From Bacilli bacterium (GTDB taxonomy: Bacteria > Bacillota_I > Bacilli_A > RFN20 > CAG-826), in the NCBI GenBank assembly GCA_045631885.1, contig JAZQVN010000013.1, positions 21,242 to 85,241 on the forward strand: 64,000 nucleotides of DNA, given 5' to 3'. A program made the position numbers and the translations under genes. Within the stretch, counting starts at the first letter, position 1, and every line of letters starts with the position of its first letter. Below are positions 4,870 to 64,000 of the stretch, piece by piece. A model generated the notes under the pieces. It was not told the DNA's origin. It did not search any database and was given only the letters and a program-made list of their open reading frames with translations.

Positions 4870-5217
4870 TTCAACAAGCATAGCCTTTTAAACGCGCCAG
4901 CAGCCCAAGAATGAAATACTTCTAGAGTAGGCTCCGACTGACTAAAACGTGAGAAAGTGACTAATTTATGAACTGGTAAGATGGATGTGTTAGGTCTTAC
5001 CAATGTGGAAAGTATCGCCCAGCGTGATATGCGGGCATAAGTAGAAGGGGTCGCATGGTAGACGCTCTTATGTTCAAGATGATCACCGCGCTCCACACAG
5101 TTTTATCTGAGCATGTGGCCATCACGAGGATGATGAAACACCAGTAGCTATAGTTGATAGGGATATCTTCTGTTAGTTACACTAGGTGTTTTCATTATGG
5201 TGATGGCTTTTATTATC
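4870..5217 (+). ncRNA. Candidate structured non-coding RNA of about 350 nt with unknown family. It is GC-enriched and ends in a long terminator hairpin.
   Basis: Region 4890-5110 is about 48% GC against about 25% in the flanking intergenic DNA. It contains several stems, for example GGTAAGA-13nt-TCTTACC. A long imperfect hairpin spans 5117-5210, with outer stem GCCATCAC/GTGATGGC and inner arms GATGAAACACC/GGTGTTTTCATT, and is followed by TTTTATT. A possible -10 TACAAT sits at 4857-4862. No convincing ORF is present. Confidence 0.3.
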
Positions 5218-19789: not shown

Positions 19790-19792
19790 AGA

Positions 19793-21421: not shown

Positions 21422-21422
21422 A

Positions 21423-23384: not shown

Positions 23385-23385
23385 A

Positions 23386-24426
23386 TTATTTCTTCGCCCC
23401 CATTCTAATTCTTGGATCGATAAATCCATATGATAAATCAAGGAAGACACCAGCGGTTAAGCTGATTAATGTGAATAACGCCATATCAACGAATAAGACG
23501 TTATAGTCTTGATTTTGTAAGGCAGTGGTAAATAATTTACCAATACCAGGAATACCATATAAGTTTTCAAGAATCATGGAACCACCTAAGATTCCGATGA
23601 ATTCCGCTAAGATGGATGGAACGATTGGAACCATCGCATTCTTTAAAGCGTGTCTAATAATTGCTTGTTTTCTGGTTAAGCCTTTAGTTCTCGCTAAGAG
23701 TAAGTATTCGCTTTCCATAACTTCACAAAGTTCGGCACGAACAGAACGGCAGTAGCCGCATATTGAACCAAACGATAAGACAAAGACTGGGATAACATAA
23801 CCTAAGACTTGGTCGCTCGTTGGATCGGTTGGATTTGGCCACTGTGTTGGTAGCCAATGCATTTGGTAAGAGAAGAAATAAATAGAAAGAGTAATTAAAA
23901 CAAAGCCAGGAACAGAAATGAAAATCATGACTGTTGTAGAAATGATGTTATCTGTCATTTTGTTTTTCTTTAAAGCCGCCCAGATGCCTAAAGCGATACC
24001 AATTGGCACGGAGAAGACGACTGATAAAATGTTAATTTTAATTGAGAATGGAAGTTTTTGCATAATGATGTTAATAACTTCCACGTTTGGATCGATAAAT
24101 GTGGATCTACCCCAGTTCCATTCAGTGAAAATGTTTTTCACCCAGGAAAAGTATTGAACCATAATTGGTGTTTGATAGAAATAATATGTAGTCTTTCCAC
24201 CATCAGGAGCGTATGACCAGAGGCAATCTCCATAACCCGGCATTTCCGACTCAAATCTCAAGACGAAACCATCATGCACTTGGCTCATATAGTAACCATA
24301 CATGCTCTGATTGGTACCGATTGGTCTTTGGAAAGGAAGCAACTTCATCAAGATGAACGTTAACGACAAGATGATGAATGCGGTGAAAAAGGCCAATATT
24401 AATCTTTTAATCGTGTATTTAATCAT
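23386..24426 (-). CDS. oppB: Oligopeptide ABC transporter permease OppB
   Basis: It has six TMs and the EAA motif region ...LLARTKGLTRKQAIIRHALKNA.... Confidence 0.85.
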   Translation of the reverse strand: MIKYTIKRLILAFFTAFIILSLTFILMKLLPFQRPIGTNQSMYGYYMSQVHDGFVLRFESEMPGYGDCLWSYAPDGGKTTYYFYQTPIMVQYFSWVKNIFTEWNWGRSTFIDPNVEVINIIMQKLPFSIKINILSVVFSVPIGIALGIWAALKKNKMTDNIISTTVMIFISVPGFVLITLSIYFFSYQMHWLPTQWPNPTDPTSDQVLGYVIPVFVLSFGSICGYCRSVRAELCEVMESEYLLLARTKGLTRKQAIIRHALKNAMVPIVPSILAEFIGILGGSMILENLYGIPGIGKLFTTALQNQDYNVLFVDMALFTLISLTAGVFLDLSYGFIDPRIRMGAKK

Positions 24427-24481
24427 AATAATTACTTTTTCTACTTTTCGTTAAATTTGCTATGTCTATAAGACTGTTAAA

Positions 24482-24519
24482 GGATTAGCGGCGCCACATA
24501 GCGAGGCGCTCGCTAATCC
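24482..24519 (-). promoter_or_regulatory. GC-rich intercistronic stem-loop between oppA and oppB (partial terminator or mRNA stabiliser)
   Basis: GGATTAGCGGCGCC-acatagcga-GGCGCtCGCTAATCC is a stem of about 14 bp in otherwise AT-rich DNA, 38 nt after the oppA stop. Confidence 0.5.
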
Positions 24520-24556
24520 TATTTTCAAATACTTTGAATGTATCTACTAAAATCGA

Positions 24557-27500: not shown

Positions 27501-27934
27501 ACTGAGATATAAGCGGCGTTTGCATACTTTTCATCGAGAAGAGCAACTTCATCGTTTAAGTCTTGGATAGCGACAGAAATTCCTGTAACTTCTGGAACAA
27601 CAGCAACTGTGACTTCACATTTTGCTTCGAAGCTACCTGCTTTTGCAGTGATTGTTGCGGAGCCAGCGGCGATAGCTGTGACTTCACCATTAGCAACTGT
27701 TGCGATCTTTTCATCACTGGATGTCCATGTGACTGTTTTATCAGTAGCATTGTCTGGTAAAACTGTGGCGTTTAATGTGCCTTTACCACCAACTAATAAA
27801 GACAATTCGCTTTTATCTAAGCTGATAGATGTAACGGCAACTTCACCTTGTTGACCACAGGCGGCTAATGACACTGTTCCACCAATAAGGAATAATGAGG
27901 AAGCAAGGGCCAATAATAATTTTTTGCCTTTCAT
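24557..27934 (-). CDS. oppA: Oligopeptide-binding lipoprotein (family-5 SBP, OppA-like) with N-terminal tandem Big_2 (bacterial Ig-like) domains
   Basis: The lipobox is LAAC. Several about 80-aa Big_2-like repeats (..VTSISLDKSELSLLVGGKGTLNATVLPDNATDKTVTWTSSDEKIATV..) are followed by a large SBP_bac_5-like domain. It is the first gene of oppBCDF. Confidence 0.8.
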   Translation of the reverse strand: MKGKKLLLALASSLFLIGGTVSLAACGQQGEVAVTSISLDKSELSLLVGGKGTLNATVLPDNATDKTVTWTSSDEKIATVANGEVTAIAAGSATITAKAGSFEAKCEVTVAVVPEVTGISVAIQDLNDEVALLDEKYANAAYISVSVKTVGKADGLKGYKVTSSDDSVLAILESAGNYFAAGLAAGKAKIIATSTFDATKKAELEVEVVAPYVRGLSLNQTGAVLVLESENFHTADILATVKDFGGSDYELEFKSSDTDVVTVAPKLGEDGETVVGATLTAVGAGQATIIFTAGEKSAECNVTVLAAGSHTPANGARSFVYSNATEREQILGALEKYAVENKLTGLTLYGDGGFVMYQDSVVKGTETYIPGFGFGVLSSGSINADLEGESKQEWKRYYHTYETDDPKNLNYMDDKGSVVGNLIGYVAGGYYTTYMNDTKDGYKWVGDLATNDRPVAMNLNESTQMATKWEIPVKTGSALKYRTRSTTYAAFNNREVKLEDYVTPYQIYYTQSYGLARSAENLTGSGSIKGAKAFYEASAKGFTQAAWDKIGIKTATHDGQDWIQFEFNMACTQFYAMYYLSSSMFAPVPAEFITTIGGGDFAEGVATWGRSNADGSLTPLDHWLSTGPYTVEAWDKDQQIVFARNENWEDEDEHYAIQGVHINILAAQKTDQEAAYKEFFAKKLHAAGIPSTKLDDPANAPYRTQTADSSTYKLNLNTCDADTWEQLFGVNGSVTQTPKSDYWEVEPAMNNKNFVSGLSFAINRAELAESEGRTPTANYFGSAYMSDPENGIAYNSTQTHKDAVASIIGEAAGTDEYGYSLAKAKEAFKTAAEELIEDGFYEEGDEIEIEIAWQTQSQIDRTHATLKKYFEDAFNTDDNPLKLKVVPWVGAEWSDVYYNKMMLGQFDIGFGSISGNTLNPLNFLEVLRSDNSSGFTLNWGLDTNAVDPTLSFKDEFYSFDALWQAADQGAYIVNGRNEAIPYEYDEDSVEFGISEDKVTVTLDVLEVSISGGDIKTQFAGLVFFGYPEAISNAGYLEAECDSCVKAEDQSGVADGYVRYVVTFNASTLAPFNTAVNAVAFSYGYVGFDLYFVTTMFGVDSDPTYQTGIDASEYLESLDDLYPGND

Positions 27935-49700: not shown

Positions 49701-50276
49701 TTACTGATTAGAATTAATGATATATTTACTAGCACCGTTGGCAAAACTCCACACCGGTGATGATGATAAACTATTACTTTCACAGACGCTTGGATTAGAG
49801 TCGTTGTCGTCTTTGTGCCATTGTTCAATACAATAATAATTTACATTGTTGGCACTATCATACGCGATATTGTATGTCTGATTCCAAATCTTATCGTTGA
49901 TATTCTCTTTTGTTAAACCTTCTGGATTTACTCTAGCGAATAAGAGTTTATTGTAGTTCACGGCATCATATCTAAATACATATAATTTGAAATTAACATC
50001 ATTAATGGTTGGATTTATTTGCTTATTTGGCGCAATCCAAACACCCGCACCATTATCTTTCCAAACATGCATGTAAAACTCTGCGCCAGTTGTATCCCAA
50101 ATGTTGGCATTAAGATAAATGCTAACCGGCAATTGTCCCTGATATCCTGCGTGTTGATCCAATCGATCACCAGCAGCAAAACCGGCATACGAAATATTCA
50201 CTAAGCTGGCGATACTTATTGTTATTTGAGATATTAATAAAGCAATCAGTGATTTCCTTTTAACTTTTGGTTCCAT
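49701..50276 (-). CDS. Small secreted protein, last gene of the SipW/TasA-like operon
   Basis: It has a signal peptide, is Asn/Trp-rich, and matches no recognised family. Confidence 0.5.
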   Translation of the reverse strand: MEPKVKRKSLIALLISQITISIASLVNISYAGFAAGDRLDQHAGYQGQLPVSIYLNANIWDTTGAEFYMHVWKDNGAGVWIAPNKQINPTINDVNFKLYVFRYDAVNYNKLLFARVNPEGLTKENINDKIWNQTYNIAYDSANNVNYYCIEQWHKDDNDSNPSVCESNSLSSSPVWSFANGASKYIINSNQ

Positions 50277-50277
50277 A

Positions 50278-53200
50278 TTAATTCACCGCCTGTAACAAGA
50301 AACTGATGTTATTGCTTAAATATCCAGCACTAACAAAATTGGTATATGATCCATTATACGGAGACGCTGTTGGCAAATAGTCAATTAAAATATATGCATA
50401 GTAAACATTGTTGTATGTTGAAATTGTTTCTAAAGCGCTGTGGTTAGTTATTATTTCATTATTACTCAACGCCAAATAAGTTGCGCTTGGAGAAGCCACG
50501 TCGTTTTGAACTTGATCGCGAACAATGTTGTAACAACTTATGCCTAATTCAGTATCGCTAACGTATAAAGAAGCACCCATAAATTCAGATAAGTTTCCAA
50601 AGGTTGCTTTTAACTGCACGCTCGCTGGATAGTTGCTTCTAAATGTAAATGGAACTTCAATAATTAAGGAAGTTTTTTGTGCCCAAATATTATTGATAGT
50701 ATCAGCTCTAGAAGTGTTGAGAGGATTCAATTTGAAATCAATACTTGTGTCGTATTCTTGAATGTCAATGGTTCCGCTTGTAACGGTAATTGAGAAATAT
50801 CCAGTGGTCTTAAATCTAATAACCGCACTCTCGCTGCCCGCGCCGAATTCAGCATAACTATTTGATCTCGCGGTCAAGGTTGTATAAAGTGTATCAACTG
50901 CGTCTAAATAAGAACGGATGAATATTTTACTGCCTTCTGCGGCATAGTAACCATCATATGCGGCATAAACTTTTGATCCTGAATTCATTTTCTTTCCATC
51001 TAAGAAATTGTTTACTCCCCTGCTGGAATTATACGGCATAATATAGTAACCATTTCCTAATTGTGGAACCATTGCAACAGATATTTCATCAGAAGTCGTT
51101 AAGTAGAAATTAAATCTTGCATCACAAGTCACTTTTAAAGTACCACCGTCATTTTCTAAATAAGTTGTTGGAATATCACCTGCATATTGTCCTGCGCTAT
51201 ATGTTTCATCGATGTCTCCGTCATTGTCTGTATCTACCTTAATAGCAACAGATTGTCCAGCTGTTAATTCTACGCCGTGTTCATAAACAAATTTATTGTA
51301 TGTATCGATGTCTCCATAATGCATTTCAATTCTAGTACCAGCGTTGTTGTTGATATAAATATATGCGGTTCCTACACTGGTTGTCGCCTTGGGGCTATCC
51401 CAATCCCAATCAACTTTTCCATCGGTATTTGTGCTCTTTAAAAGCAGCAATCCACCATCGTTGATGGTTGTGATATCAGTTGTTTGTGTTTGTGAATATC
51501 CGTAAGTACCATTATCGACAATTAAACCGGTTGCGGAATACGGAATAGACACTTTATATAAATTATTGCTGACTTTACTAGCGGTTATTTCACCATGAGA
51601 ACCGCTTCCACTTGAAAATCCATCTCCCCATCCGTGAATGTAAATATTTGAATTCCAAGAACGAGCTTGGGTATCGATATGGAATGTTTTTTGTCCAACA
51701 GAAATATATTTCACATACAAAGTTCTAGTGGCTGGAGCAGAAGCAGAATAAGGTGTTGTACAAGCTTCATTTGTATAATAAGTACCATCACATGTGAAAT
51801 GCGTCCATGTACCAGCATCAATCCATTCATAAGATGAACTTGGCGATGCTCCACCCGGTGTATAAGTTGCATCAGTGGCATAGGCCGTATCCCAGTTGTT
51901 TATAACATCATCTGATTTTGATGAAGCAGAACCATCATAATTGAAATATTTTTTGACCAATTTGACAGCATATTCCGTTGGTTTATATCTAGCATAAATC
52001 GTTCTTGCGGTGCTATATGTTTGCGGCCAAGAATTAATAAGACTTCCACCGGTTTCAGCAGTATACCATCCCATAAATGTATAATTTGTTACTGTTCCCG
52101 GATCGGTTGGAGTGAACGAAAAACTGTTAGTCGGATAAGATTGTTCGGTTCTTAAAGTTGAAGATGTATTCTTGGTGGTTCCACCTTTATTCATTAAAAC
52201 TCTAACTTCAGTGATATCAACCCCGGTTTCCGTATATTTTGCATATAATGTTAAATCTGCAGATACTGTTGTTGAAGATCCTGGGGAAGTACCATATGGG
52301 GTGGTACATTCTGGATTTGTGAACCAACCAGTAACTGAATAACCAGATTCAGATGGTAAAGCTTTAATTGTAAACGATTCATTGTAATAAGGATTTTGTG
52401 TTAAAGAAGGCAATGATGTCGGACTACTAACTGTATCCGTTCCATCGCCATTGAAATAAACTTTCTTGTAAGAAACAGTATATTGTTTCGGACCATAAAC
52501 AGCATAAATGGTTCTATCTGACGATGAAATGAAGTTTGCAGAAATAGATGTTAATGAGTCACTAAAAGTATTTGAACCAGTAAGAGTGGTATAATAGGCG
52601 GTAAAATTGTAATTTGCTGTACTTGGTGACAGCGCATTTCTCCATGCATTTAAAGCTGCGGTGGTAGCGGTAGTTCTCGTACTTGCTTTATAGTTCTGAT
52701 TGTTACCAAAACTTTGTTTAACGCCGCTAGAATTAGCATACGCAATTTTAATATTTATATTGTATTCTTTTTCCGCAACCGTTACATAAAGCGTCGTTGC
52801 GGCTATAATGTGTGTTCCGTTTGTGTAATTTGAACCAGTAAAACTGGTTGTTTTCCATGTTAAACCTGTATATGTATTGCCTTCAACAGTAATTGAACTT
52901 GGCGCAGTATACTCTGAATTGTATGATACTTTAACATCATCATAATTAGTTCCGGAAGTATAGTTTGTAGTTGGGCTTGTTCCTGTATAGGTTTTATATG
53001 AAAATCTATACATCAATGTGACGGTAACCGCCACATAGACATATATTTTTCCAGAAGAGTTCACGTACACATCTAAAACACAAGTTTTTAGAACTTTAAC
53101 ATTTTGTCCTTGTCCATCACCCGTTGCGGAATCGGAGTCATTAGTTCCTCCATAGCCATAATATCCATATTCATCGCTTTGTGTGTGACCAGTATCTATT

Positions 53201-54489
53201 TCACCATATGCGTTATAATACACGATTTTAAATTCTATTGGGGTGTTGTTGTTCGTGAGCGTGAAAGTAATGCCAACCTTTTTGGCTAAATCTCCCCCAC
53301 TAGGTGTGCCATCGACCTTTAAAGCGCCTGAAACAGACCAATCTAAAGTAGTTTCGTTTGCCGTTCCTCCAGATCCAATGATGTAATATCCTGGATCAGC
53401 GTGGAGTTTAACTGTCGGCGCAGCAGCACTAGAAGATGAAGGAAAAACCCATTTACCTTTAATATCATTAACCGTTAAATCTGCCGTTTTGAATGTCCAG
53501 TCATAATTTCCGTCATTTCCGTTGCTATCGCCAACAATGATAAGATTTGGATAGGTTGTTCTGACTGTTATCTCGAAGTCGTTATTAAAATTGCCGCTGT
53601 TATCCCAGCCATCCCAGCCATTATAACTCACCCATTCAGAATAAGTTCCGTTTCCAAACCAATATAACCAAAGTCTATTTAAACCTTTGCCGTTCCAATT
53701 GCTAGCGTTGACGTATATTTTTGATTCATCACCATTAAGAGCAGTTCTTTTTGAATTGTTTAAATGGATGCTGGATGAATTATTTGTATCACGAACTCTT
53801 GATCTATGATCAACTGTGCTTGTTGGCGTTTCAAAAGTCAAACTGCTCTCTGACAAATCAAACCACACACGATAAGTACCAGCATTAGCTACAATAACAT
53901 CACCTGTATATATACTTGCAGCGCTTTCTTCTCTTGTAGCTCCACTACTATTGGCAATAACACTATTAATAGGAACTTGCTCATTAACAGTATGAACACC
54001 TCCAGTATTATCGAAGGTGTATTTCATTACTCTGACTTTTTGGTCACTAGTAAAACTAACATCTGCATAATATGACTTATCAGAGGTGTTATATTCAATT
54101 AATTTAAAGCTGTTGTCATCATCATATTTAAAACCATTATCATGGAATTTAACGAGATAATATCCAATTCCATCTTCAGGAACGTTGAAGTCTCTATCAA
54201 CAGCATCTAAATCGTTATTTGTGCCAACAATATTTTCCGCAGCAAATTTACTTACTGTAGAGGAATTGTAATCAACTTGTCCATCTGAACCCAAAGTTTG
54301 TTTAATTTTGTATCCATACACATTATTCTGATTAATTTCAATCCCTGGATTATCAGCGGTAATGGATGTTTTTAACGGTTGAGAATCAATTTGGAACCAC
54401 GCAAAAGTTGAAACGCTCGCACACAAAACACCCAACAGTGATGTTGCCAATGTTAGATATAACGTTGTCTTCTTTTTTAGTGCTCTCAT
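50278..54489 (-). CDS. Giant (1403 aa) secreted protein with a TasA/camelysin-like N-terminal module with a SipW-cognate signal, Thr/Ser/Tyr/Asn-rich repeats and Listeria-Bacteroides (Flg_new) repeats
   Basis: The N-terminus is ..SVSTFAWFQIDSQ.. (compare TasA GGTWAAFND and CalY GGGTFAFFSD). Flg_new-type repeats ..SGYSVTGWFTNPECTTPYG...LTLYAKY are present. Confidence 0.6.
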   Translation of the reverse strand: MRALKKKTTLYLTLATSLLGVLCASVSTFAWFQIDSQPLKTSITADNPGIEINQNNVYGYKIKQTLGSDGQVDYNSSTVSKFAAENIVGTNNDLDAVDRDFNVPEDGIGYYLVKFHDNGFKYDDDNSFKLIEYNTSDKSYYADVSFTSDQKVRVMKYTFDNTGGVHTVNEQVPINSVIANSSGATREESAASIYTGDVIVANAGTYRVWFDLSESSLTFETPTSTVDHRSRVRDTNNSSSIHLNNSKRTALNGDESKIYVNASNWNGKGLNRLWLYWFGNGTYSEWVSYNGWDGWDNSGNFNNDFEITVRTTYPNLIIVGDSNGNDGNYDWTFKTADLTVNDIKGKWVFPSSSSAAAPTVKLHADPGYYIIGSGGTANETTLDWSVSGALKVDGTPSGGDLAKKVGITFTLTNNNTPIEFKIVYYNAYGEIDTGHTQSDEYGYYGYGGTNDSDSATGDGQGQNVKVLKTCVLDVYVNSSGKIYVYVAVTVTLMYRFSYKTYTGTSPTTNYTSGTNYDDVKVSYNSEYTAPSSITVEGNTYTGLTWKTTSFTGSNYTNGTHIIAATTLYVTVAEKEYNINIKIAYANSSGVKQSFGNNQNYKASTRTTATTAALNAWRNALSPSTANYNFTAYYTTLTGSNTFSDSLTSISANFISSSDRTIYAVYGPKQYTVSYKKVYFNGDGTDTVSSPTSLPSLTQNPYYNESFTIKALPSESGYSVTGWFTNPECTTPYGTSPGSSTTVSADLTLYAKYTETGVDITEVRVLMNKGGTTKNTSSTLRTEQSYPTNSFSFTPTDPGTVTNYTFMGWYTAETGGSLINSWPQTYSTARTIYARYKPTEYAVKLVKKYFNYDGSASSKSDDVINNWDTAYATDATYTPGGASPSSSYEWIDAGTWTHFTCDGTYYTNEACTTPYSASAPATRTLYVKYISVGQKTFHIDTQARSWNSNIYIHGWGDGFSSGSGSHGEITASKVSNNLYKVSIPYSATGLIVDNGTYGYSQTQTTDITTINDGGLLLLKSTNTDGKVDWDWDSPKATTSVGTAYIYINNNAGTRIEMHYGDIDTYNKFVYEHGVELTAGQSVAIKVDTDNDGDIDETYSAGQYAGDIPTTYLENDGGTLKVTCDARFNFYLTTSDEISVAMVPQLGNGYYIMPYNSSRGVNNFLDGKKMNSGSKVYAAYDGYYAAEGSKIFIRSYLDAVDTLYTTLTARSNSYAEFGAGSESAVIRFKTTGYFSITVTSGTIDIQEYDTSIDFKLNPLNTSRADTINNIWAQKTSLIIEVPFTFRSNYPASVQLKATFGNLSEFMGASLYVSDTELGISCYNIVRDQVQNDVASPSATYLALSNNEIITNHSALETISTYNNVYYAYILIDYLPTASPYNGSYTNFVSAGYLSNNISFLLQAVN

Positions 54490-54494
54490 ATTAA

Positions 54495-55379
54495 TTAAAA
54501 TTCCAAAGTTAATTCATTTAATTGAAATTGCAACCCAGCATAACAATTTGAGTTATATAATTTGTCGTTGTTGTCTCCGCTTGAATAATGATGAAAATAT
54601 CGTCCAGCCGCAGTATCTGCTTGTGGTGAATAATAATCCTCTGTTCCTCCAGAATTCGTTTCTTTAAACCAAGTGGAAGAGGCATTTGTGAAATAAACCG
54701 CATAAAACAACGTGGAAGAGGCATTTGGTGCAGCTCCAGTAAAAATTGTTTTTTGAGTGGAAAGAGTGATGATGTTCCCATCTGGCGTTCCTGGCAAGAA
54801 TGAAGATTTTAGAGTTCCAACAGTGAAGTTAAATTGATCTTGGGCAGAAAGAGATGCAGGATTGTTCACCATTGCGTTGTACGCACCGTTTTCGCTTGAT
54901 GTTGCCACTGCACTTGTATAAATATCCATGGCCCATCCAATGTTGATATCTCTATTGGAATAATCAACCGCTCTTCTGACTTGACCAGAAACTTGATCGC
55001 TATGAGTATTTGATGTAATTCTTTTAATTTTCAAATCTATGTTGCTGTCACATCCGGTCATTTTTACAGCGAAAACCATAACCTTACCAGGATACATTGC
55101 TGATAAGTTTGTTTTATCAGCTAACAATTCAGAGGTTGTGATAGCGTCAAAATCAGAACTAAATGTGCCTGTGTATGTGTGACTGGCTTTATTGCCTTTA
55201 TAGGCATAAAACATATAGTCATCTGGTTTTGTAACCGTAATTGTCGTAGATGTAGGTGCTGCAGTTATGGTGACATTTGCGTTAGCCTGGAACCAAGCGT
55301 ATGTCGAAACACCCGCTGTTGTAATAGCGAGTAAACCGATCATGACACTGGTGATTAATCCGGCTCTACCTTTTCCCAT
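54495..55379 (-). CDS. TasA/camelysin (Peptidase_M73)-like secreted protein with a SipW-cognate signal peptide
   Basis: The N-terminus is ..LAITTAGVSTYAWFQANANVTIT... It is 294 aa, similar in size to TasA/CalY. Confidence 0.55.
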   Translation of the reverse strand: MGKGRAGLITSVMIGLLAITTAGVSTYAWFQANANVTITAAPTSTTITVTKPDDYMFYAYKGNKASHTYTGTFSSDFDAITTSELLADKTNLSAMYPGKVMVFAVKMTGCDSNIDLKIKRITSNTHSDQVSGQVRRAVDYSNRDINIGWAMDIYTSAVATSSENGAYNAMVNNPASLSAQDQFNFTVGTLKSSFLPGTPDGNIITLSTQKTIFTGAAPNASSTLFYAVYFTNASSTWFKETNSGGTEDYYSPQADTAAGRYFHHYSSGDNNDKLYNSNCYAGLQFQLNELTLEF

Positions 55380-55391
55380 ACGGCCCCTTTC

Positions 55392-57854
55392 CTAGAATAC
55401 AAATCTTGCTCCTGTAATTAGGTCTTGATATTTTTCTTCAATTAAGATTGGCTTATCATCATGGATGATAGAGTTAATCTTATTTTGATAACTCTTATCA
55501 CTGGCCAATCTTCTTCCATCAATTCTGATATAGACGAATCTAGAGGTATCAAAGTTATATGTACCACTATCATTCGCGTCTAAAGCGATATTAAAGCCTA
55601 AATCTAAGGCGTAATTGACCGCTTCTAAGTGATTGATGATGTCTCTTTCTTTCGCTTCAAATATCACTCGATTGAGAGGGATATGCTTGCTTTCAAAGAA
55701 ACCAATCAATGTATCGAATAATTGTTTGTCTAATCCTTCTTTACCAATTGATGTAACATATATCGTTTCATTTTCATAATTGAAGGATCTGACGAATTTA
55801 TCCATGAAGGTGATATATTTCTTATCAATCTTCACATACAAACTGATTTGATCATCTGGGATGTGATTATGGTTTTCATCTAAGAAACGATAACCGACGA
55901 ACGCCATTTTGTATTTATTCTCTAAGTCTTTAATACGGAAATATGAAACTGGGATTTCATTATTCTTGAAGGCTTCTTCAACGATATCCATATAATGGAG
56001 ATGGTCATCAATCGGGGTTGGTGCTTCATCAACACGGTATAACATGCCTTTCTTCGTCACTCTCATGAATAAGGTTCTACTTAATGAATCTAATGAGAAT
56101 AATGTATTAACTTCTAATGGGTAACTTAATAAGATAACCTTTGGTAAGAAGTGGAAGGCTGTATCGTTTAATTCAAATGTTTCTAAGAAGGCTCTTGAAA
56201 CTGCTTTGGCGATTCTAATTGCTTCCGCCATTGAGGCGTATTTTAAGATATAGACGAATTCATCGACATCTTTACGATATAAGCTATCAGTTAAGCCATA
56301 GACTTCTAAGCCTTCAACAATCTTATTAACGATTCCTTCGTTATCTAATTTGTATTTGCTCGCTAATTGAGTCAATGAGTCAATCTTGAAGATGACTAAA
56401 TAACCCTTCGCATTCGCGTTAGATAATAAGCCTAATAATCTTTCGTTTAATGCTTTTCTATCATTAATAAATGGTTTCTTTTCATTTAATAAGTAGATTG
56501 TGTTCTTGTTATTATCCGCTTCCACGACTCTCTTATATAAGTTAGAAGACAACATATATGTTTTGGTGTTTTCTTGTTTTAATGGACAATCTTTACATGG
56601 AGATTCTCTATCATATAAAGTTTCATAACAATATGAACCCACTAGTTTGTTGGAGTATCTTTCATTTAACTTTCTAGAAGCGTGAGTGACGATATAATCT
56701 TCATCAACTTCATAAGATAACGAATCATGTAATTCTTCTAATCTATTAAATCTAGATTCCGCTTCTTCGACTTTCATCTTATCGATTTCAATTAAGACTA
56801 AGTTATTTAACATCGCGATCACTTTATTGAGTTTATAAAGTAAGCGAGGTGTGACTGGCACTTCTTCGTGTTCATTGGCGAATACGACATGAGCTTGTTT
56901 GCCCATATATTTAATTCCGGATAGTTTTAACCATGTCTTAAATTCTCTATCTTCGATTTCAGAAATTAATAATGCACCTTTATAGTTAACAATACGTAAA
57001 TATTCTTCATCGACGAGGACCGCCATATGGGTGAATGGGAGATATGGGAAGATATCGATTAAGTAATCTTCTATTAAGTTATCTTTAGATAAATCAATGT
57101 CTTTATATTTGTTGATGACATTGATAAAGACTTCTTTTTCACTATTTCTATCGTAGATCAAAAGTCTTTCTTCATCTTGATTTTGTTCTTGATTAATTAA
57201 TTCAAGAATTTCATCTAATGAATATTCGTCATAATAGAATAATTTAATAGAGCATTCTTTTCTTTCTTCCACGAATTTACGGAGATAATCTTCTAATTCG
57301 CTCTTATCAAAAGTATCGAGCACTAAATCAAAGCTCTTTTCATTTTGTCCAATGAAGCAATTTGGATATTTATCAACGATTCGTTCTAATGTTCTTTCTT
57401 TGACACCATTGATACGGAGGATCGCGCATTTCTCTAATCCGGATTTAATAATATATTTTCTTAATAACACGAAGAATTCATTTCCATCGTATAAAGTGGA
57501 ATATTCTAATGTGGTGTCATTAATGACAATATCATTAACCACACTAGCGATTTCTTTTAATCCTTCATCACCAGAATTAGTGTTGGCGATTAATAATTGG
57601 TTATGTTGATATTTCTTTAAAGATTTAACGATATTCTCTTTATCAATTTCTAAAGCTTTCTCTTTATCTTTTCTAGAAACATTCATCGCGATATAGAAAC
57701 CGCACATACCGAGTAGGAAAATCACGCTTAAAGCGATGAATAAGATTAATAAATCTTTCATCACAATAGCCATCACTAAAGAAGCAATGGATAAGGCTAA
57801 AAAGATAACCATCCACACGAAGTAAACATTATTTTGTTTATTTTTCTTCTTCAT
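55392..57854 (-). CDS. Membrane-anchored protein with a degenerate GGDEF domain followed by a degenerate EAL domain (c-di-GMP receptor/regulator-like)
   Basis: It has two N-terminal TMs. The GGDEF-like region ..YLVIFKIDSLTQLASKYKLDNEGIVN...YRKDVDEFVYIL..SMAEAIRIAKAV has KDVDEF in place of GGDEF. The EAL-like C-terminus has ..NIALDANDSGTYNFDTSRFVYIRIDGRR.. in place of IALDDFGTGYSSL..LKID. Confidence 0.55.
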   Translation of the reverse strand: MKKKNKQNNVYFVWMVIFLALSIASLVMAIVMKDLLILFIALSVIFLLGMCGFYIAMNVSRKDKEKALEIDKENIVKSLKKYQHNQLLIANTNSGDEGLKEIASVVNDIVINDTTLEYSTLYDGNEFFVLLRKYIIKSGLEKCAILRINGVKERTLERIVDKYPNCFIGQNEKSFDLVLDTFDKSELEDYLRKFVEERKECSIKLFYYDEYSLDEILELINQEQNQDEERLLIYDRNSEKEVFINVINKYKDIDLSKDNLIEDYLIDIFPYLPFTHMAVLVDEEYLRIVNYKGALLISEIEDREFKTWLKLSGIKYMGKQAHVVFANEHEEVPVTPRLLYKLNKVIAMLNNLVLIEIDKMKVEEAESRFNRLEELHDSLSYEVDEDYIVTHASRKLNERYSNKLVGSYCYETLYDRESPCKDCPLKQENTKTYMLSSNLYKRVVEADNNKNTIYLLNEKKPFINDRKALNERLLGLLSNANAKGYLVIFKIDSLTQLASKYKLDNEGIVNKIVEGLEVYGLTDSLYRKDVDEFVYILKYASMAEAIRIAKAVSRAFLETFELNDTAFHFLPKVILLSYPLEVNTLFSLDSLSRTLFMRVTKKGMLYRVDEAPTPIDDHLHYMDIVEEAFKNNEIPVSYFRIKDLENKYKMAFVGYRFLDENHNHIPDDQISLYVKIDKKYITFMDKFVRSFNYENETIYVTSIGKEGLDKQLFDTLIGFFESKHIPLNRVIFEAKERDIINHLEAVNYALDLGFNIALDANDSGTYNFDTSRFVYIRIDGRRLASDKSYQNKINSIIHDDKPILIEEKYQDLITGARFVF

Positions 57855-58080
57855 TTGTTTTTCCTTTCGTATTTATAAAGAGATGAAACTTATTGATAAG
57901 AAATATCGTAATAATTGCTAATAAGGTGAACACTGCGAGGAATAGATAAGATAGAATAGCGAGTAAATTATCTGAGCGGTTGAGGAATAAGATGAATGAT
58001 GTGATTGATGTTCCGAGTAATATTCCTAATAAGAGGAATAAGGGGAACAATATCATCTTGCTTTTGTTCTTATTTTCCAT
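57838..58080 (-). CDS. Small two-TM membrane protein
   Basis: It is an 80-aa hydrophobic ORF overlapping both neighbours. It may be translationally coupled. Confidence 0.4.
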   Translation of the reverse strand: MENKNKSKMILFPLFLLLGILLGTSITSFILFLNRSDNLLAILSYLFLAVFTLLAIITIFLINKFHLFINTKGKTNEEEK

Positions 58081-58912
58081 CTTTTTCCTTTTCGATTTGT
58101 TTACGGATTCTCGCTTTTATCTTTTCTTTTTCTTCTTGATACTCGATTCTTAATTCTTCTTTCATTCTGAATAGCTCAACCGCTTCTTCATCATTTAAGT
58201 CAATACCAGAATTCTTTAACGCTTCATCAATCCTCGCATTCAAAGCTTTTTCTTCTTTGTAATATTTGATGAATGCATCAGCGATGTAATATATCGCAAG
58301 TATCACAATTGGGGAGACGATGGCCACCGGGAAGAACCATGCTTTCTTTCCCGCGGAGGCTGCGCTATCGGGGCTAGCGATAGTTAAGAAGGTACCAAAT
58401 CCGATTGAGTGGTAGATAACTTTTCCAATTAAGAGATCTTGGTTCCACACTTTATCTGGTTTTAAATTACCTCTAGTGTGTAAGTCTGGATTATCTCCTA
58501 ATGTTTGGAAATAATATTTACCTTCTTCTTGGTTATACTCACGAGCGATTAAGCGGTGAGTATCTGGAACATAAGTTGATCCTACTTGAAGAGCGAATGT
58601 GACGATATCGCCGTCTTTTTCATAATCAACTATGTTGCCTTCTTCGTCATAAATCGGTGTGGATAGTTTTAATGACTCATAATTAGTCACTTTTTCAATG
58701 ATGATGCCTGTCCCCGCTTTTAAGGAATCGGGATTATCTGGATCATTCATACTTTCTGTCGCGACATATAAGAATGATTTTCCAAATACGACTGGCACTC
58801 CATAATTGCCACCTTTTGAAACATTCATGGAGATTTGTACATAGAGAAGTAAGAAGATAATGCCCACTAAGAAGATATCAATTATATAAGATATAATCTT
58901 TTTCGCTTTCAT
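58070..58912 (-). CDS. sipW: Signal peptidase I, archaeal/eukaryotic type (S26B; SipW-like) with a C-terminal TM and a charged coiled-coil tail
   Basis: It has an N-terminal TM. The Ser box is ..ATESMNDP.. (compare SGSMEP), the His box is ..VPDTHRLIA.., and ..QTLGDNPD.. matches SipW TKGDNN. A second TM is followed by a KE-rich tail. Confidence 0.8.
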   Translation of the reverse strand: MKAKKIISYIIDIFLVGIIFLLLYVQISMNVSKGGNYGVPVVFGKSFLYVATESMNDPDNPDSLKAGTGIIIEKVTNYESLKLSTPIYDEEGNIVDYEKDGDIVTFALQVGSTYVPDTHRLIAREYNQEEGKYYFQTLGDNPDLHTRGNLKPDKVWNQDLLIGKVIYHSIGFGTFLTIASPDSAASAGKKAWFFPVAIVSPIVILAIYYIADAFIKYYKEEKALNARIDEALKNSGIDLNDEEAVELFRMKEELRIEYQEEKEKIKARIRKQIEKEKDGK

Positions 58913-58914
58913 AA

Positions 58915-60297
58915 TCAGTTCTTCTTAGTATTCTTTGGTTTCTTTTCTTTTTTCTCTTTGAGTTTTTCTAATTGGCTTTCTAAATCATCATTAGCCATTC
59001 TTAGTCTTTTAATTTCATTAATTAAAGTATCGATATCTTTCTTGACGCTTTCGATCATTCTCTTACGATGTTCCGCATCGCGATATGCGACTTCATCTTT
59101 ATCCTTAACAATCGCTTTGTGCACATTAACACGCGCGTCTTTTTGATTCTTTAACTTCTGATGTAATTTATCGTCTTTTAGACGAACTTGTTCGCTAGAT
59201 AATGGTAAGTGAATCTTATCTGTCTTTAAGGCTTCTGGATAAGCATCGAATAAGAATCTTGAATCCATATATGTTTCATCTTCTAATGTGAAGATCACTT
59301 GAGGAGTATATTTCTTTTCGATCTTTTCAGGGATTAATTCATCATTTACTTTATTCGTGTGAAGCGCGGATACACTCATCGCGATATAAGAATTGATTTC
59401 ATCTAAATATTCTTTGGAGAATTTTTGATTCACTTCAGTGATATCGTAACTAATACCTAATTCTTCATAATCTTCTAAGAAGCACCAGAATTCATAGGCT
59501 CGATGATAATCAGGGTTTTTCACTAACATATTCGTCATGTGAATTGGAGAAGTGACTTCTCTAGCCCCTTTCATCTGAGTCATAAACGGAGAAGCGAAAT
59601 ATCCAGAACATCTATTCTTTAATTCATTGAGTTTATTTAATAAGTAGTCGTTATGGTCTTTTTCACCATCATCATTAGATGGGATAGACACTTTGATTCT
59701 AGAATCAACTTCATAAGTGACATTACCAATAACAGTTTTGTTATGAATTAATAACAAATCGCTATCACGAGTTTCACCATGTTCAAGAACATAGTTATAT
59801 CTCTTTTGAATGAAAGATAAACATCTCTTAATGAGAGTCATAACAAATCTATTTTCATAAATCGCTGTATCTGTTTCCGCGTAGATTGTTAAGACTTTTT
59901 CTGGAATAACTTCGCCATTATCATCGATATCTTGAACAAATTGGCTATGAGTGGCGAAATGTCTAATTGATAAAGAGGAAACTCTTTTGGCTAATCCAAC
60001 TTGAACCAGTTCAGCTTGCTCTTTAATAAATGTTCTCGGGTTAGCGATAATCTTTTCAATCGCTTGTAAACCACCTTCTAATTGTTCAATAATCGAAGCA
60101 TCAAATTTCTTAGATTCGGTTCTTTGAGTTTGTCTGATGTAATTTTCTCCACCAGAAAGGACACCTTTTAATTTATCGAATTCCGCGTTCTTATTAACAT
60201 TTATGTTAACTTCGCGATAAGCCTTGCTGGCTTTTTCCATGTTTAAAGAGGTGGGGTTTAATCTAGATGAAACTGATGTCTTTTTACTTTTGGCCAT
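58915..60297 (-). CDS. Hypothetical partner protein of the McrB-like GTPase (possible McrC-like fold with no evident PD-(D/E)xK motif) and a C-terminal coiled coil
   Basis: It is 460 aa, starts 3 nt after the McrB-like gene and ends 3 nt before sipW. The segment ..AIYENRFVMTLIKRCLSFIQ.. faintly resembles the McrC N-terminal motif. Confidence 0.35.
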   Translation of the reverse strand: MAKSKKTSVSSRLNPTSLNMEKASKAYREVNINVNKNAEFDKLKGVLSGGENYIRQTQRTESKKFDASIIEQLEGGLQAIEKIIANPRTFIKEQAELVQVGLAKRVSSLSIRHFATHSQFVQDIDDNGEVIPEKVLTIYAETDTAIYENRFVMTLIKRCLSFIQKRYNYVLEHGETRDSDLLLIHNKTVIGNVTYEVDSRIKVSIPSNDDGEKDHNDYLLNKLNELKNRCSGYFASPFMTQMKGAREVTSPIHMTNMLVKNPDYHRAYEFWCFLEDYEELGISYDITEVNQKFSKEYLDEINSYIAMSVSALHTNKVNDELIPEKIEKKYTPQVIFTLEDETYMDSRFLFDAYPEALKTDKIHLPLSSEQVRLKDDKLHQKLKNQKDARVNVHKAIVKDKDEVAYRDAEHRKRMIESVKKDIDTLINEIKRLRMANDDLESQLEKLKEKKEKKPKNTKKN

Positions 60298-60299
60298 AA

Positions 60300-61844
60300 T
60301 TATCTAGCATTTTTCATTAATGTTTTAATCTTGTCTCTACTGAGTAAGAATTCGTTTAAGCCATAGAGTCTAGTTAATTCTTCATCTAAAGCGACGAGTT
60401 CTTCTTTTAATAGACCGACGCTTAACACTTCAAATTTCTTTAATACTTTTGTCTTAAAGATGAAGTCATAAGCCTCTAATTCAGTTCCTCCACAGGCGAT
60501 ATAAGCAGGAACAAAGGAGTAGAGTTGTTTCATGATACGGTTACCAAAGGCAAGCTTGAAATGTTCAATGACAAAGTTATCGAGTTCAGCGAATTTCGCG
60601 ATGCTTTCTTCACTGACCGGATGTTCTTCTCTCGCCTTCGCGTATAATCCTAATAAATATTCCGCGGGCACAGGTAAGGCTTCTGTGTATGGAGCGTCGA
60701 ATGGTTGTGCTTTATTATCGAAGAATAAGGACACCGCTCTATCGTAGACCTTATCGGTGATAGTGAATGTGCTATCATCGTTATTCGCAGTACCAACAAA
60801 CCAAATATTTTGTGGGATTAATAATTTGCCACCTTCTAAGTGTTTTGGATCATCTTCTTTACCTGCAGCGATAACATCAACAATCCATTCTTTTGGATCA
60901 GGCATTTCCATGATGGATAAGAATTCAGCAAAATAGTATTCAATACGAGCTAAGTTCATTTCATCGAGAACGACGACGGAAATATCATTACGATATGTCG
61001 CTTCATAACAGGCTCTTAAGAATTCTGTTTCAGTGAATTTCTTGGTGAAGTCATTATAGTAACCTAATAATTCACTTCTATCTCTCCAAGATGGTTGAAC
61101 TGGACAAATAGATGCACTATGACGGAGGAATCGACCCATACAATATGGTAAAGATGTTTTACCTGTACCAGAGATACCTTCTAAGATAATCAAATGTCCT
61201 GTTCCCATTGCGGCGAAGAATTGTCTGACCACTTCTGGGGCATAGTATAACTTCATTTGAGAACAAGCGAAGTTTCTAAATCTTTCACAAATTTCCTTTA
61301 AGGAAATAGATGTAGAATCCGCTGGGAGTTCCGCAACGTAGTTACCTTCTTTATATTTATCATCGACTGTATAGAGCTTAGCAAATCTGCCTCCCACGAC
61401 GGAATCATCAGCAGCACCTTTTCCACGACCTCCGCCACCACCGGCTTCAATCACTGGAGAATAAGTACCATCAGCGTTACGTGATAAGGCTAAGATGCGA
61501 TCTTTTTCTCTTGTCACATCGTATAATTCGAGGTTTAATCTTTCGATTTCCTCTTTCATCTTCTCTTCATTTGACCCTTTAGCGCCTTTTTTGAAAATCT
61601 TTCTAATCGCCCAGATGAGTAATAACACGATTGAGGCGATGAAAAGCACACCAATAACAACGAAGATGACGAACATAATTGTTCCCACCACTCCAAATTG
61701 AGGTTGGTTTTCCGCGAAGACTAAAATGTAATCATCAGGGGAAAAGCGATAAGTTCCTTTGAAGATATTACCGATGTGAGTAAATAAGGTAGTAAAGACT
61801 CCGTTTACATAAAGTAGAAAACTTTGAAATCCATTCATAAACAA
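60300..61844 (-). CDS. Membrane-anchored McrB-family AAA+ (AAA_5) GTPase-domain protein
   Basis: It has N-terminal TM helices and a Gly-rich linker. Walker A is EGISGTGKT. ..VVLDEMNLARIEYYFAEFLSIME.. matches McrB FIIDEINRANLSKVFGE..LME, and ..NIWFVGTANNDDST...DRAVSLFF.. matches McrB IIGTMNTADRS...RRRF. Confidence 0.75.
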   Translation of the reverse strand: MFMNGFQSFLLYVNGVFTTLFTHIGNIFKGTYRFSPDDYILVFAENQPQFGVVGTIMFVIFVVIGVLFIASIVLLLIWAIRKIFKKGAKGSNEEKMKEEIERLNLELYDVTREKDRILALSRNADGTYSPVIEAGGGGGRGKGAADDSVVGGRFAKLYTVDDKYKEGNYVAELPADSTSISLKEICERFRNFACSQMKLYYAPEVVRQFFAAMGTGHLIILEGISGTGKTSLPYCMGRFLRHSASICPVQPSWRDRSELLGYYNDFTKKFTETEFLRACYEATYRNDISVVVLDEMNLARIEYYFAEFLSIMEMPDPKEWIVDVIAAGKEDDPKHLEGGKLLIPQNIWFVGTANNDDSTFTITDKVYDRAVSLFFDNKAQPFDAPYTEALPVPAEYLLGLYAKAREEHPVSEESIAKFAELDNFVIEHFKLAFGNRIMKQLYSFVPAYIACGGTELEAYDFIFKTKVLKKFEVLSVGLLKEELVALDEELTRLYGLNEFLLSRDKIKTLMKNAR

Positions 61845-61852
61845 AGCTCCTT

Positions 61853-62980
61853 TTAATCAATGATGCCAGTAAATGAGATATCAACATCAAAACTGGCGGA
61901 TGCTATTTCATCAGTCATATCAATATCCCAACCTTCGACATAGATACTAATAACGATTCTTTTCGTTTCTCCTTCTTTAATATGACAGATAGGAGTAAGT
62001 TTTCCTGCCAAATAGTTGACTTGATTGAATGCAAATGATTTTAGCGGATATGACTCTTCTTTTTTAATTTCGACTTGGTGGTTATTTGTGTCTAAGAAAG
62101 CACTACGATTATCGTTAACAAACGCCACTTGTTTAATGCCTTTCGCATGATTAGCAATAAAGGTGTTTTTGTTATCTTTTAATGGTTCAAGTTCGTTAAC
62201 TTCTCCATCCACGTAATTTGGCGTAGATTCATATTCACCATAAAGGATTTCTTTATTATCCTCATCGTAATCATAGTAGCCATCTTTATCTAAATCTAAG
62301 ATGCCACCGAAGTATGTTTGTTCACTGTTACCTAATGTATCAGCGGGCTTACAAACAACATATTGTTCATTCGTTAAGAATGAGTATCTGACAGCGTTTA
62401 CGACATTATCGAGTTTATCAGCGTGTAATTCACCATCACTCTTGGCTTCCGCTTCCACGTTTTTATCGTGATTAGGAGCTATGCCAGTGTTTTCCGATAA
62501 ATAGATATCCATTTCTCGTCCAGCGGTAAATACAAATGTATTTTGGACATAGAAATTGTCTTCGTCATCTTGAGTGGCCAAACTTGGTTTCTCATTAATC
62601 TTCGGTCTATAGTTTCTTCTAAATTGTGGTAATAATGTCTCATCAGTTTTCGTAGTTTCGTTATACCAATCATCTTGATACATACCACTGACTTGGCCTA
62701 AGTATTTGCCTTCGATACCTAACTGCTCTTTTGTGTAGCCATCTCCTTCTTCGTCCTCAACTGGATTTCCATCTTTATCTAATAGTTCGAGTTTTAACCA
62801 TGCGTTTTCTTCCAAATCGACACGCATATTCAAACTACCGATAATCGCTATATCGAGCATGTTATACCATGCCGCAGTAGCGACTGAGGAGGTGGCCACA
62901 CCAAAAGCAAAAAGTACTGCACATACAGCCATAAACTTAATCTTCTTATTTTTCAAAGGTGTAGATCTTTTAAAAGGCAT
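61853..62980 (-). CDS. TasA/camelysin-like secreted protein with a SipW-cognate signal peptide
   Basis: The N-terminus ..ATSSVATAAWYNMLDIAIIGSLNMRVDL.. aligns with TasA ..GGTWAAFNDIKSKDATFASGTLDL... Length is 375 aa. Confidence 0.6.
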   Translation of the reverse strand: MPFKRSTPLKNKKIKFMAVCAVLFAFGVATSSVATAAWYNMLDIAIIGSLNMRVDLEENAWLKLELLDKDGNPVEDEEGDGYTKEQLGIEGKYLGQVSGMYQDDWYNETTKTDETLLPQFRRNYRPKINEKPSLATQDDEDNFYVQNTFVFTAGREMDIYLSENTGIAPNHDKNVEAEAKSDGELHADKLDNVVNAVRYSFLTNEQYVVCKPADTLGNSEQTYFGGILDLDKDGYYDYDEDNKEILYGEYESTPNYVDGEVNELEPLKDNKNTFIANHAKGIKQVAFVNDNRSAFLDTNNHQVEIKKEESYPLKSFAFNQVNYLAGKLTPICHIKEGETKRIVISIYVEGWDIDMTDEIASASFDVDISFTGIID

Positions 62981-62982: not shown

Positions 62983-63882
62983 TTATATACCGAAGTGTAA
63001 TGACATAAGCATATAACCTGTGAATGGGAATGGATCTGGGTCTCTCTTTTCAAAGTAACAAACAAATGTAAATCTGAGTGAATCTTTGATTTCGACTGCA
63101 TTATCAACAATTCTCTTCTCGTTTGAGAAGTTGAATTTTTCACAATATCCATCAACACCATACTTTGTGGCAGGTTTGATACTATTATTTTCTTCATCAA
63201 TGACATAATCCGAGACGATTTCTCTGTGATTACTGTCGCCGTTATCGTACGCTTGTGTGAAAGGATTCGCCTGATTCCTTTCCTTGCCATAATAGTAATT
63301 ATGGATAACACCATCTTGGTCCTCGGTTTGAACGAGAACTCTAGCGCTTTCTAATAGTTGGGTATTTTCATATCCTTCTAAGTCAACTGCGTAGTTAACT
63401 CTTGTGGTCATTTCATTTGTCTCATTGGTGAGATAAACAGTGAACACTAAAGCGAGGTCACTAGGATCTTCAACCGCTTTTTTAGCTCTTCCTATATCCA
63501 CTAAATGGTTTTCATTCATGTTCGTGGAGCCGGTTAACTTCTTGTTAACGTTTAGATAATTAAGATATTCTTCAACATTTGACGCGGTGGTTTGTTCCAC
63601 TGTTCTAAGTGGTTCGCCTTGCGCATATGTCACAGGACTATCTTGCCCTTCTTCTTCACCTTCTCCGGATTCTCCTGAACCGAAACCAGTAAGGTGCATT
63701 TTGAAGTTAGAATTATCATCGCTTAATGGGTTATCAATACGAATTGTAAACGCTGAATTACCTTGAGGGAGTAAAGAAAGGACGAGAAAAAGGACTGCTA
63801 CACCAGATGATACAGCTAGACCAATTAAGCCCAGTCTCTTTAATAATCTATATCTCGCAATCTTTTTCGCTTCGCCTGTCAT
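62983..63882 (-). CDS. TapA-like (TasA anchoring/assembly) candidate, first gene of the operon
   Basis: It has a signal-anchor followed by ..GNSAFTIRIDN.. (compare TapA ..SAAFHDIE..). It is an acidic secreted protein with an AGAGGAGAGG RBS. Confidence 0.4.
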   Translation of the reverse strand: MTGEAKKIARYRLLKRLGLIGLAVSSGVAVLFLVLSLLPQGNSAFTIRIDNPLSDDNSNFKMHLTGFGSGESGEGEEEGQDSPVTYAQGEPLRTVEQTTASNVEEYLNYLNVNKKLTGSTNMNENHLVDIGRAKKAVEDPSDLALVFTVYLTNETNEMTTRVNYAVDLEGYENTQLLESARVLVQTEDQDGVIHNYYYGKERNQANPFTQAYDNGDSNHREIVSDYVIDEENNSIKPATKYGVDGYCEKFNFSNEKRIVDNAVEIKDSLRFTFVCYFEKRDPDPFPFTGYMLMSLHFGI

Positions 63883-64000
63883 AATAAAACCTCTCCTCTA
63901 GGTATGAAGAAATCGCTATTACCAATCTAATTACTTCTTTTGTTGCCGCAAAAGGATAATCAAATAAGCATTAGCTAACTGCCCTATTGGAGAAGACGGT

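Follow-up and report, generated by a model that had tools for sequence, protein, structure and literature searches.

A membrane-anchored McrB-family GTPase and its McrC-like partner in a candidate SipW-dependent surface fiber operon of Bacilli and Clostridia

Introduction

McrBC is the textbook example of a restriction enzyme that depends on DNA modification. Bell et al. (eLife 2024) described, under the name CoCoPALM, a large clade of NxD McrB-like GTPases that carry an FtsB-homologous domain of transmembrane (TM) and coiled-coil helices. In the three sentences devoted to this clade, with analysis deferred, the GTPase was reported together with a DUF2357 McrC homologue bearing a coiled coil and with an associated gene of the signal peptidase family. 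This work examines a locus of this kind in a 64,000-nucleotide (nt) stretch of DNA from a Bacilli bacterium (GTDB lineage Bacteria; Bacillota_I; Bacilli_A; RFN20; CAG-826; assembly GCA_045631885.1, contig JAZQVN010000013.1, positions 21,242 to 85,241 of the forward strand), referred to here as the window. Two adjacent minus-strand open reading frames (ORFs) of the window are of interest: one encodes a membrane-anchored McrB-family GTPase (60300 to 61844), and the other encodes a McrC-like partner (58915 to 60297).

Judged from its sequences, the locus matches CoCoPALM. We make this assignment because every feature tested agrees, with the exception of homology to E. coli FtsB, which is not detectable. 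The arrangement, which the original prediction for this DNA (made from the sequence alone) had presented as unusual, is therefore not new; it belongs to a class that has been named and is uncharacterized. A literature search for follow-up work on CoCoPALM found none, and the eLife supplements in text form make no mention of it. The sole co-mention of "McrB" and "TasA" retrieved from the literature was McrB in the genotype of an E. coli strain. Our analysis leads us to favor, with some reserve, the view that the locus is a CoCoPALM-type, McrBC-derived GTPase module inside an operon for SipW-dependent surface fibers.

Results

Family assignment of the GTPase

ORFs were called over the 64,000-nt window, in which a co-directional minus-strand run extends from 63882 down to approximately 49701. 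Within this run, the GTPase and partner ORFs are separated by 2 nt, as are the partner and the signal peptidase gene that follows it; these measured gaps replace the 3-nt spacing given earlier. The GTPase and partner ORFs are real and tightly coupled. The TTG start listed for the 514-amino-acid (aa) GTPase lies 1 to 2 nt past an AAGGAG ribosome-binding site, whereas an ATG at 61838 lies 8 nt downstream and is for this reason the likelier start. The ATG also agrees with the starts of GTPase homologues, and the true product is probably a protein of 512 aa beginning at this codon. Residue numbering in this work follows the 514-aa version. The exact 514-aa sequence is missing from the protein collection in which the partner and signal peptidase sequences occur, probably because the start was misassigned.

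Taken alone, the GTPase gave a sub-threshold match to Pfam AAA_5 (E 0.012) and a weak match to NCBIfam McrB (E 0.0015). Comparison of a 17-homologue profile to all solved structures returned E. coli McrB as the sole significant match (E 3.5e-5), and alignment of the GTPase family to E. coli McrB with hhalign gave a probability of 95.6% (E 1.3e-8) over 252 columns, including the lid. On the basis of these profile comparisons, the larger protein is assigned to the McrB family, in agreement with the earlier reading of its core as resembling McrB rather than MoxR. A MoxR-type ATPase was rejected as a candidate, with AAA_5 below threshold and McrB the only significant structural relative by sequence.

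Motif conservation was assessed across the GTPase homologues of 84 loci from Bacilli and Clostridia, the sample also used for synteny. The Walker A motif GISGTGKT was found in 83 of these proteins (the window reads GISGTGKTS), and it is invariant or almost so, as are the Walker B motif VVLDEMNLAR and the segment GTANNDDST. The sensor motif G-T-[AI]-N-[NKR]-D-D-[ST]-T occurs in all 84. Close relatives with long N-terminal coiled coils carry N-K-D-E or N-R-D-E at this position, and the conserved Asp is therefore the one at +2. This corresponds to the NxD-then-D/E signature by which Bell et al. define the branch, with N-N-D-D being also readable as NxxD in an ungapped alignment to E. coli McrB.

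Membrane anchor and N-terminal region

The GTPase consists of an N-terminal segment of approximately 50 aa, a TM segment (residues ∼52 to 80), a heptad segment (∼96 to 120), a Gly-rich linker (134 to 151), and the AAA+ core (∼190 to 514). Hydropathy analysis gave one strong TM segment; the N-terminal 30 residues are weakly hydrophobic, with a maximum of 1.2 on a 19-residue Kyte-Doolittle window. The two or three N-terminal TM helices initially described are accordingly reduced to one, while the membrane anchor itself stands, as does the Gly-rich linker (GGGGGRGKGAADDSVVGG). Among the 84 homologues, hydropathy gave one TM segment in 66, two in 17, and three in 1. Acidic residues precede the TM segment and the sequence RKIFKKGAK follows it; because of this charge distribution (the positive-inside rule), the AAA+ domain is predicted to be cytoplasmic.

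After the TM segment, a heptad-like segment, EEIERLNLELYD..REKDRIL, is conserved, with E101, L103, N104, E106, and L107 being invariant. The TM helix, the heptad segment, and the Gly-rich linker make up the N-terminal 190 residues, in which no Pfam domain and no DNA-binding or modified-base-reading domain was found. Alignment of the GTPase family to E. coli FtsB with hhalign detected no homology (probability 0.3%), and Pfam DivIC gave no match.

The same GTPase sub-branch was also observed on other membrane modules in seven relatives (P0278, P0280, P0301, P0312, P0326, P0348, and P0369). In some of these, a signal peptide is combined with an ectodomain of ∼300 aa and a single TM segment; in others, the N-terminal domain is polytopic and shows several TM-like hydrophobic segments, as read by eye. 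Such sequences suggest that membrane anchoring seems widely diversified within the sub-branch.

A DUF2357 partner lacking a nuclease

The McrC-like partner (58915 to 60297, minus strand) is a protein of 460 aa with a DUF2357 core at residues ∼55 to 320 and an 85-residue C-terminal helix at residues 368 to 452. The hidden Markov model (HMM) searches proposed with the original prediction gave, besides the weak GTPase matches described above, a match of the partner to Pfam DUF2357, the N-terminal activator domain of McrC, at 33.4 bits (E 3.5e-8), above the gathering score. DUF2357 was detected independently in 16 of 20 diverse partner homologues. No nuclease family (PD-(D/E)xK) was found in the window partner or in 27 further homologues, which included diverse representatives and eight longer proteins. 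The AlphaFold model of the partner (pLDDT 72.5) comprises a helical core, two long beta-hairpins, the single end helix (368 to 452), and a low-confidence loop (92 to 141) that carries conserved residues; it shows no nuclease core. The absence of a PD-(D/E)xK nuclease, noted earlier by inspection, is thus confirmed by both family scan and model. When the partner profile was compared to solved structures in the Protein Data Bank, chance matches alone were returned, with no nuclease among them; the match to PvuII (E 0.051) is a chance helix match.

Across genomes, the core is conserved, while the tail ranges from 100 to ∼980 aa and is composed of 45 to 85% E/K/R/Q/D/A. As a soluble protein, the partner keeps the DUF2357 activator domain and has a long helix where McrC has its nuclease. 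In one locus (L079:7353-10304, Ruminococcus sp. metagenome-assembled genome [MAG] RGIG6565), a 984-aa protein joins the DUF2357 partner, an E/R/K-rich coiled coil of ∼400 aa, a TM segment, a SipW domain, and a second TM segment. This partner-SipW fusion was found in L079 alone among the 84 loci, and in its relative L078, the partner and SipW parts are two genes 8 nt apart.

One further partner homologue, from a Faecalibacillus sp. MAG (L037:9017-15757), reaches 2247 aa; its DUF2357 core is followed by ∼15 Ig-like repeats of the Big_2 type. The protein has no TM segment by hydropathy, yet it places normally extracellular repeats on a presumably cytoplasmic protein.

The signal peptidase and its candidate substrates

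The gene downstream of the partner (58070 to 58912, minus strand) encodes a SipW/Sec11-type signal peptidase I of 280 aa. Matches to NCBIfam SipW were weak. The family profile matched SEC11A/C at an E value of 1.4e-15, and S54-M55, T118-H119, and G139 (in the G-D-N box) were invariant in 24 sequences, with S54 and H119 forming the Ser-His dyad. By hydropathy, the peptidase has two TM helices (6 to 24 and 193 to 211) and a C-terminal tail that is 47 to 68% charged. The catalytic domain lies outside the membrane, and the charged, cytoplasmic tail lies inside.

In three proteins of the operon, the N-terminal hydrophobic segment has [ST]xAW[FY] at its end, which we take to resemble the TasA-type signal: the 375-aa candidate fiber subunit (61853 to 62980, minus strand; SVATAAWYN), a 294-aa secreted protein (54495 to 55379, minus strand; GVSTYAWFQ) with homologues in L005 and L006, and a 1403-aa surface protein (50278 to 54489, minus strand; SVSTFAWFQ) with Flg_new (Listeria-Bacteroides) repeats. 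Several operon proteins carry SipW-type signal peptides. Flg_new proteins of ∼1,930 to 2,050 aa occupy the matching position in L004 and L005, and the 1403-aa protein is likely an adhesin or tip component.

In the 375-aa protein, a beta-sandwich body comes after the N-terminal TM/signal segment. Among structures, this protein matched the TasA fiber best and donor-strand pilins next, with the similarity being weak. Foldseek gave no significant result for the 375-aa protein, a profile of its family matched no solved structure, and neither the 375- nor the 294-aa protein matched an NCBIfam family at E 0.1. The fiber proteins have no sequence similarity to TasA/camelysin (Peptidase_M73). The GTPase-partner pair had been described as lying between TasA-like and SipW genes; the SipW side of this description is borne out, and the TasA side is limited to a weak structural match.

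Distribution and synteny

A word-indexed search detected >8,000 relatives of the GTPase, and the top 120 were all ∼500 aa long and 54 to 92% identical to it. In an exhaustive search of representatives, 731 clusters at 50% identity had an E value of ≤1e-30, and at least 585 species-representative genomes encode the GTPase. The carriers found were mostly gut or rumen MAGs of Bacilli and Clostridia. Among the best 80 loci, those on the Bacilli side come from MAGs labeled Bacilli, Acholeplasmatales, Anaeroplasmataceae, and Erysipelotrichaceae, and those on the Clostridia side include, for example, Christensenellales, Oscillospiraceae, and Ruminococcus. Christensenella, Faecalibacillus, and Acholeplasma relatives are also among the carriers.

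Gene order was compared across the 84-locus sample using HMM detection, with SipW genes counted within 9 kb on the same strand. All 84 loci had the GTPase, 78 had a SipW-family gene, 77 the partner, 69 a member of the 375-aa family, and 68 an ORF bearing the signal motif. The search of related genomes for membrane-anchored McrB-like genes near sipW, which had been proposed as a check, was therefore positive. The usual order is fiber protein paralogues, SipW, GTPase, partner, and second SipW; in most loci (many of L015 to L085), two SipW-family paralogues flank the GTPase-partner pair. The closest relatives (L001 to L014) have a small SipW-like ORF of 126 to 176 aa upstream of the fiber genes. 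One SipW gene is visible in the window, and another may be located past position 64000.

The genes on either side of the operon vary from locus to locus and are of housekeeping type; related loci have, for example, TrmE, TatD, and pyruvate kinase, and the window has thyA, glycerate kinase, aldehyde dehydrogenase, and AddAB. No defense-island context and no division genes were present in the neighborhoods of the loci examined. Because synteny is conserved over 84 loci in two classes with unrelated housekeeping flanks, co-option of the McrB/McrC-like pair, as originally proposed, is supported at the level of gene association. A role of the pair in fiber assembly is plausible. The pair is an integral component of the operon, not an inserted defense module. 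Percent identities for the GTPase, partner, SipW, and fiber proteins were 73, 58, 51, and 35 in L004 and 55, 46, 41, and 31 in L001. Such a gradient agrees with a cytoplasmic machine that is conserved and surface substrates that evolve fast.

Other genes of the operon and the window

Following the SipW gene, an 820-aa membrane protein with a degenerate GGDEF-EAL tandem (55392 to 57854, minus strand) is a candidate receptor or regulator for cyclic di-GMP (c-di-GMP). Pfam EAL and GGDEF were below threshold for this protein, while its family profile matched DosP (6e-29) and FimX (5e-23). No canonical GG[DE]EF or E[AV]LxR motif was found in ten members of the family. The protein may be a c-di-GMP receptor like FimX. 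A BLAST search of the 84 loci located its homologues after the SipW gene in 12 Bacilli loci (L001 to L005, L008, L009, L014, L015, L018, L033, and L040) and gave no match in the listed Clostridia-labeled loci.

The first operon gene visible in the window encodes a 299-aa membrane-anchored protein of unassigned family (62983 to 63882, minus strand; TM segment at residues 17 to 35). Pfam and NCBIfam scans gave no match to this protein, and counterparts of 298 to 372 aa occupy the same position in nine related Bacilli loci (L001 to L006, L008, and L009 being those listed). Between the SipW and GGDEF-EAL genes, and overlapping the end of the former and the start of the latter, is an ORF of 80 aa with two TM helices (57838 to 58080, minus strand). 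A BLAST search of related loci retrieved no homologue of it, and it may or may not be a true gene. The last co-directional gene encodes a 191-aa protein with an N-terminal TM segment and no Pfam match (49701 to 50276, minus strand), and it is uncertain whether this protein is part of the system. A scan for promoters and terminators over 49 to 64 kb gave the same counts as shuffled sequence.

Elsewhere in the window, two further features were recorded. A 535-aa ORF that has RhuM and Fic/DOC domains (5409 to 7016, plus strand) is closely preceded by an Rfam COG3943 RNA (5087 to 5189, plus strand; 89.8 bits, exceeding the gathering score). The components of an oligopeptide ABC transporter cluster at 18179 to 27934 (minus strand) are unusually long. 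Its substrate-binding protein, which has a Big_2 domain at the N terminus, measures 1125 aa, and its permease measures 675 aa; the ATPases, of 536 and 542 aa, seem to contain insertions within the ABC domain.

Discussion

Proposed mechanism

In the mechanism that we propose, six GTPase subunits would form a ring held under the membrane, and the DUF2357 stalk would sit in the ring pore and stimulate GTP hydrolysis, as McrC does for McrB. The partner helix, the juxtamembrane heptad segment of the GTPase, and the SipW tail might associate, passing GTP-driven movements on to the peptidase or to membrane-anchored precursors. Signal peptide cleavage could thereby be timed with the strand-exchange polymerization of TasA-like subunits. 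In the Bacilli clade, the degenerate GGDEF-EAL protein would probably provide c-di-GMP input, by analogy with FimX and type IV pili. The overall logic would be that of a pilus assembly platform, in which a nucleoside triphosphatase (NTPase) and a membrane anchor work with a dedicated peptidase, rather than that of a restriction enzyme. A bolder extension, which we offer as speculative and rather doubtful, is that CoCoPALM represents a third, independently evolved class of NTPase-driven pilus machine. In such a machine, an exapted restriction GTPase ring, with a McrC-derived plug as its shaft and coiled-coil coupling to a peptidase of the endoplasmic reticulum (ER) type, would use GTP hydrolysis (c-di-GMP-gated in some lineages) to drive stepwise processing and polymerization of TasA-like subunits on gut Firmicutes, including reduced-genome lineages labeled Acholeplasma/Mollicutes.

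Several points weigh against a GTPase-driven fiber machine. The fibers of B. subtilis TasA and C. perfringens BsaA need SipW and have no known dedicated NTPase (PMC11580942), and an energy requirement is therefore not obvious. Ring assembly and pore insertion are extrapolated from canonical McrBC, and coiled-coil contacts among the GTPase, partner, and SipW are conjecture. The sequence profile of the partner does not reach E. coli McrC, and the fusion in L079, as a single case in a MAG, could be an assembly error. Finally, the closest PADLOC model to the GTPase (PDC-M26A, 2.2e-41), which is also its strongest library match, is a defense candidate.

Alternative explanations

The main rival is a pure switch, in which the GTPase and partner would act as a nucleotide-state sensor that toggles SipW activity or operon output and performs no mechanical work. 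Components and synteny are identical under this explanation and under the assembly mechanism, the SipW cytoplasmic tail could receive the signal, and the operon of the Bacilli clade also encodes a degenerate GGDEF-EAL protein; moreover, known TasA-type fibers assemble outside the cell without an NTPase (PMC11580942). McrB-type AAA+ rings are nevertheless processive hydrolases rather than switches, and the invariant Walker B and sensor motifs argue for active hydrolysis. The GGDEF-EAL gene, moreover, was detected by BLAST in only 12 of the 84 loci and was found in none of the listed Clostridia-labeled ones, and the core therefore works without this protein. We regard the switch as unlikely, though worth keeping in view.

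Much less probable, in our estimation, is a membrane-tethered defense system of McrBC/CoCoNuT ancestry that sits in, or is tied to, a surface protein operon, for example, to sense phage at the envelope. Homology to McrB and McrC speaks for such a system, as do the PADLOC match and the nearest GTPase relatives, which include soluble, CoCoNuT-looking proteins with long N-terminal coiled coils. Set against these are the lack of a nuclease domain in the partner or adjoining it, the replacement of the DNA-binding N-terminal domain of McrB by a TM anchor, the fixed operon position, and full-length identities of 42 to 92% among GTPases, a conservation that is unusual for defense genes. The related suggestion of the original prediction, that a defense module or island had been inserted in the operon, is rejected because a nuclease and island context are both lacking and synteny is kept in two classes; the GTPase is also the most conserved gene of the operon. 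A cell division or envelope-organizing module, in which an FtsB-like TM and coiled-coil anchor targets the GTPase to the division site and the fiber link is secondary, would agree with the TM helix and short heptad segment and with the description of the N-terminal region as FtsB-homologous by Bell et al. (eLife 2024). The hhalign comparison to E. coli FtsB detected nothing, however, division genes are missing from the neighborhood, and the constant neighbors are SipW and secreted proteins; we consider this explanation extremely improbable.

If the fiber assembly role is true, a branch of McrBC that lacks a nuclease, is anchored in the membrane, and is fixed in a surface fiber operon would represent a clear case of a defense motor taken over for a cellular task. 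The cluster and species counts above indicate a large family, and to our knowledge the adhesion structures of the gut and rumen Bacilli and Clostridia that carry it are little characterized. A role for the GTPase, once shown, would alter the understanding of SipW-dependent fiber assembly.

Comparison with known systems

Canonical McrBC of E. coli K-12 shares with the locus the AAA+ GTPase core with Walker A, Walker B, and sensor Asn/Asp motifs, as well as a separate partner gene with a DUF2357-type activator, the two genes being adjacent and translationally coupled. It differs in that, here, a TM anchor takes the place of the DNA-binding N-terminal domain, the partner is without the PD-(D/E)xK nuclease, and the pair is chromosomal, vertically conserved, and located in a secretion/fiber operon. 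CoCoNuTs belong to the same GTPase sub-branch (40 to 48% domain identity to proteins with N-terminal coiled coils of ∼400 aa and N-[KR]-D-E motifs), and their McrC homologues often lack an active nuclease. However, CoCoNuTs are soluble and always occur with HEPN or other nucleases, neither of which is true here; the neighbors are instead SipW, secreted proteins, and the GGDEF-EAL protein.

With CoCoPALM, the locus has in common the McrB-like GTPase with the N-x-D(D/E) signature on an anchor made of a TM helix and a putative coiled coil, the DUF2357 McrC homologue with a coiled-coil tail, and constant neighbors of the signal peptidase family. Beyond the account of Bell et al., this work adds candidate substrates whose signals read [ST]xAW[FY] and whose fold is weakly TasA-like, the two SipW paralogues around the pair in many genomes, the GGDEF-EAL accessory of the Bacilli clade, one partner-SipW fusion, and the failure to detect sequence homology to E. 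coli FtsB.

In SipW fiber operons (B. subtilis tapA-sipW-tasA, C. perfringens sipW-bsaA, and those of archaeal bundling pili), as in this locus, the genes for an ER/archaeal-type signal peptidase and for its (here, candidate) substrates lie together. Those substrates are beta-sandwich subunits that polymerize by donor-strand exchange, and the candidate subunits of this locus would be of the same kind. Such operons differ in having no dedicated NTPase, and the fiber proteins described here resemble TasA and camelysin weakly in structure and not in sequence. The type IV pilus and the archaellum (PilB-type ATPase, platform protein, prepilin peptidase, and FimX input) share the functional logic proposed here: an NTPase hexamer in the cytoplasm, a membrane peptidase dedicated to precursors that are anchored in the membrane, and regulation by a degenerate GGDEF-EAL protein. 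There is no homology between these machines and the locus. In place of a secretion ATPase, the locus encodes an AAA+ GTPase; its peptidase is a Ser-His signal peptidase that works outside the membrane; and its candidate subunits are beta-sandwich proteins, unlike the alpha-helical pilins.

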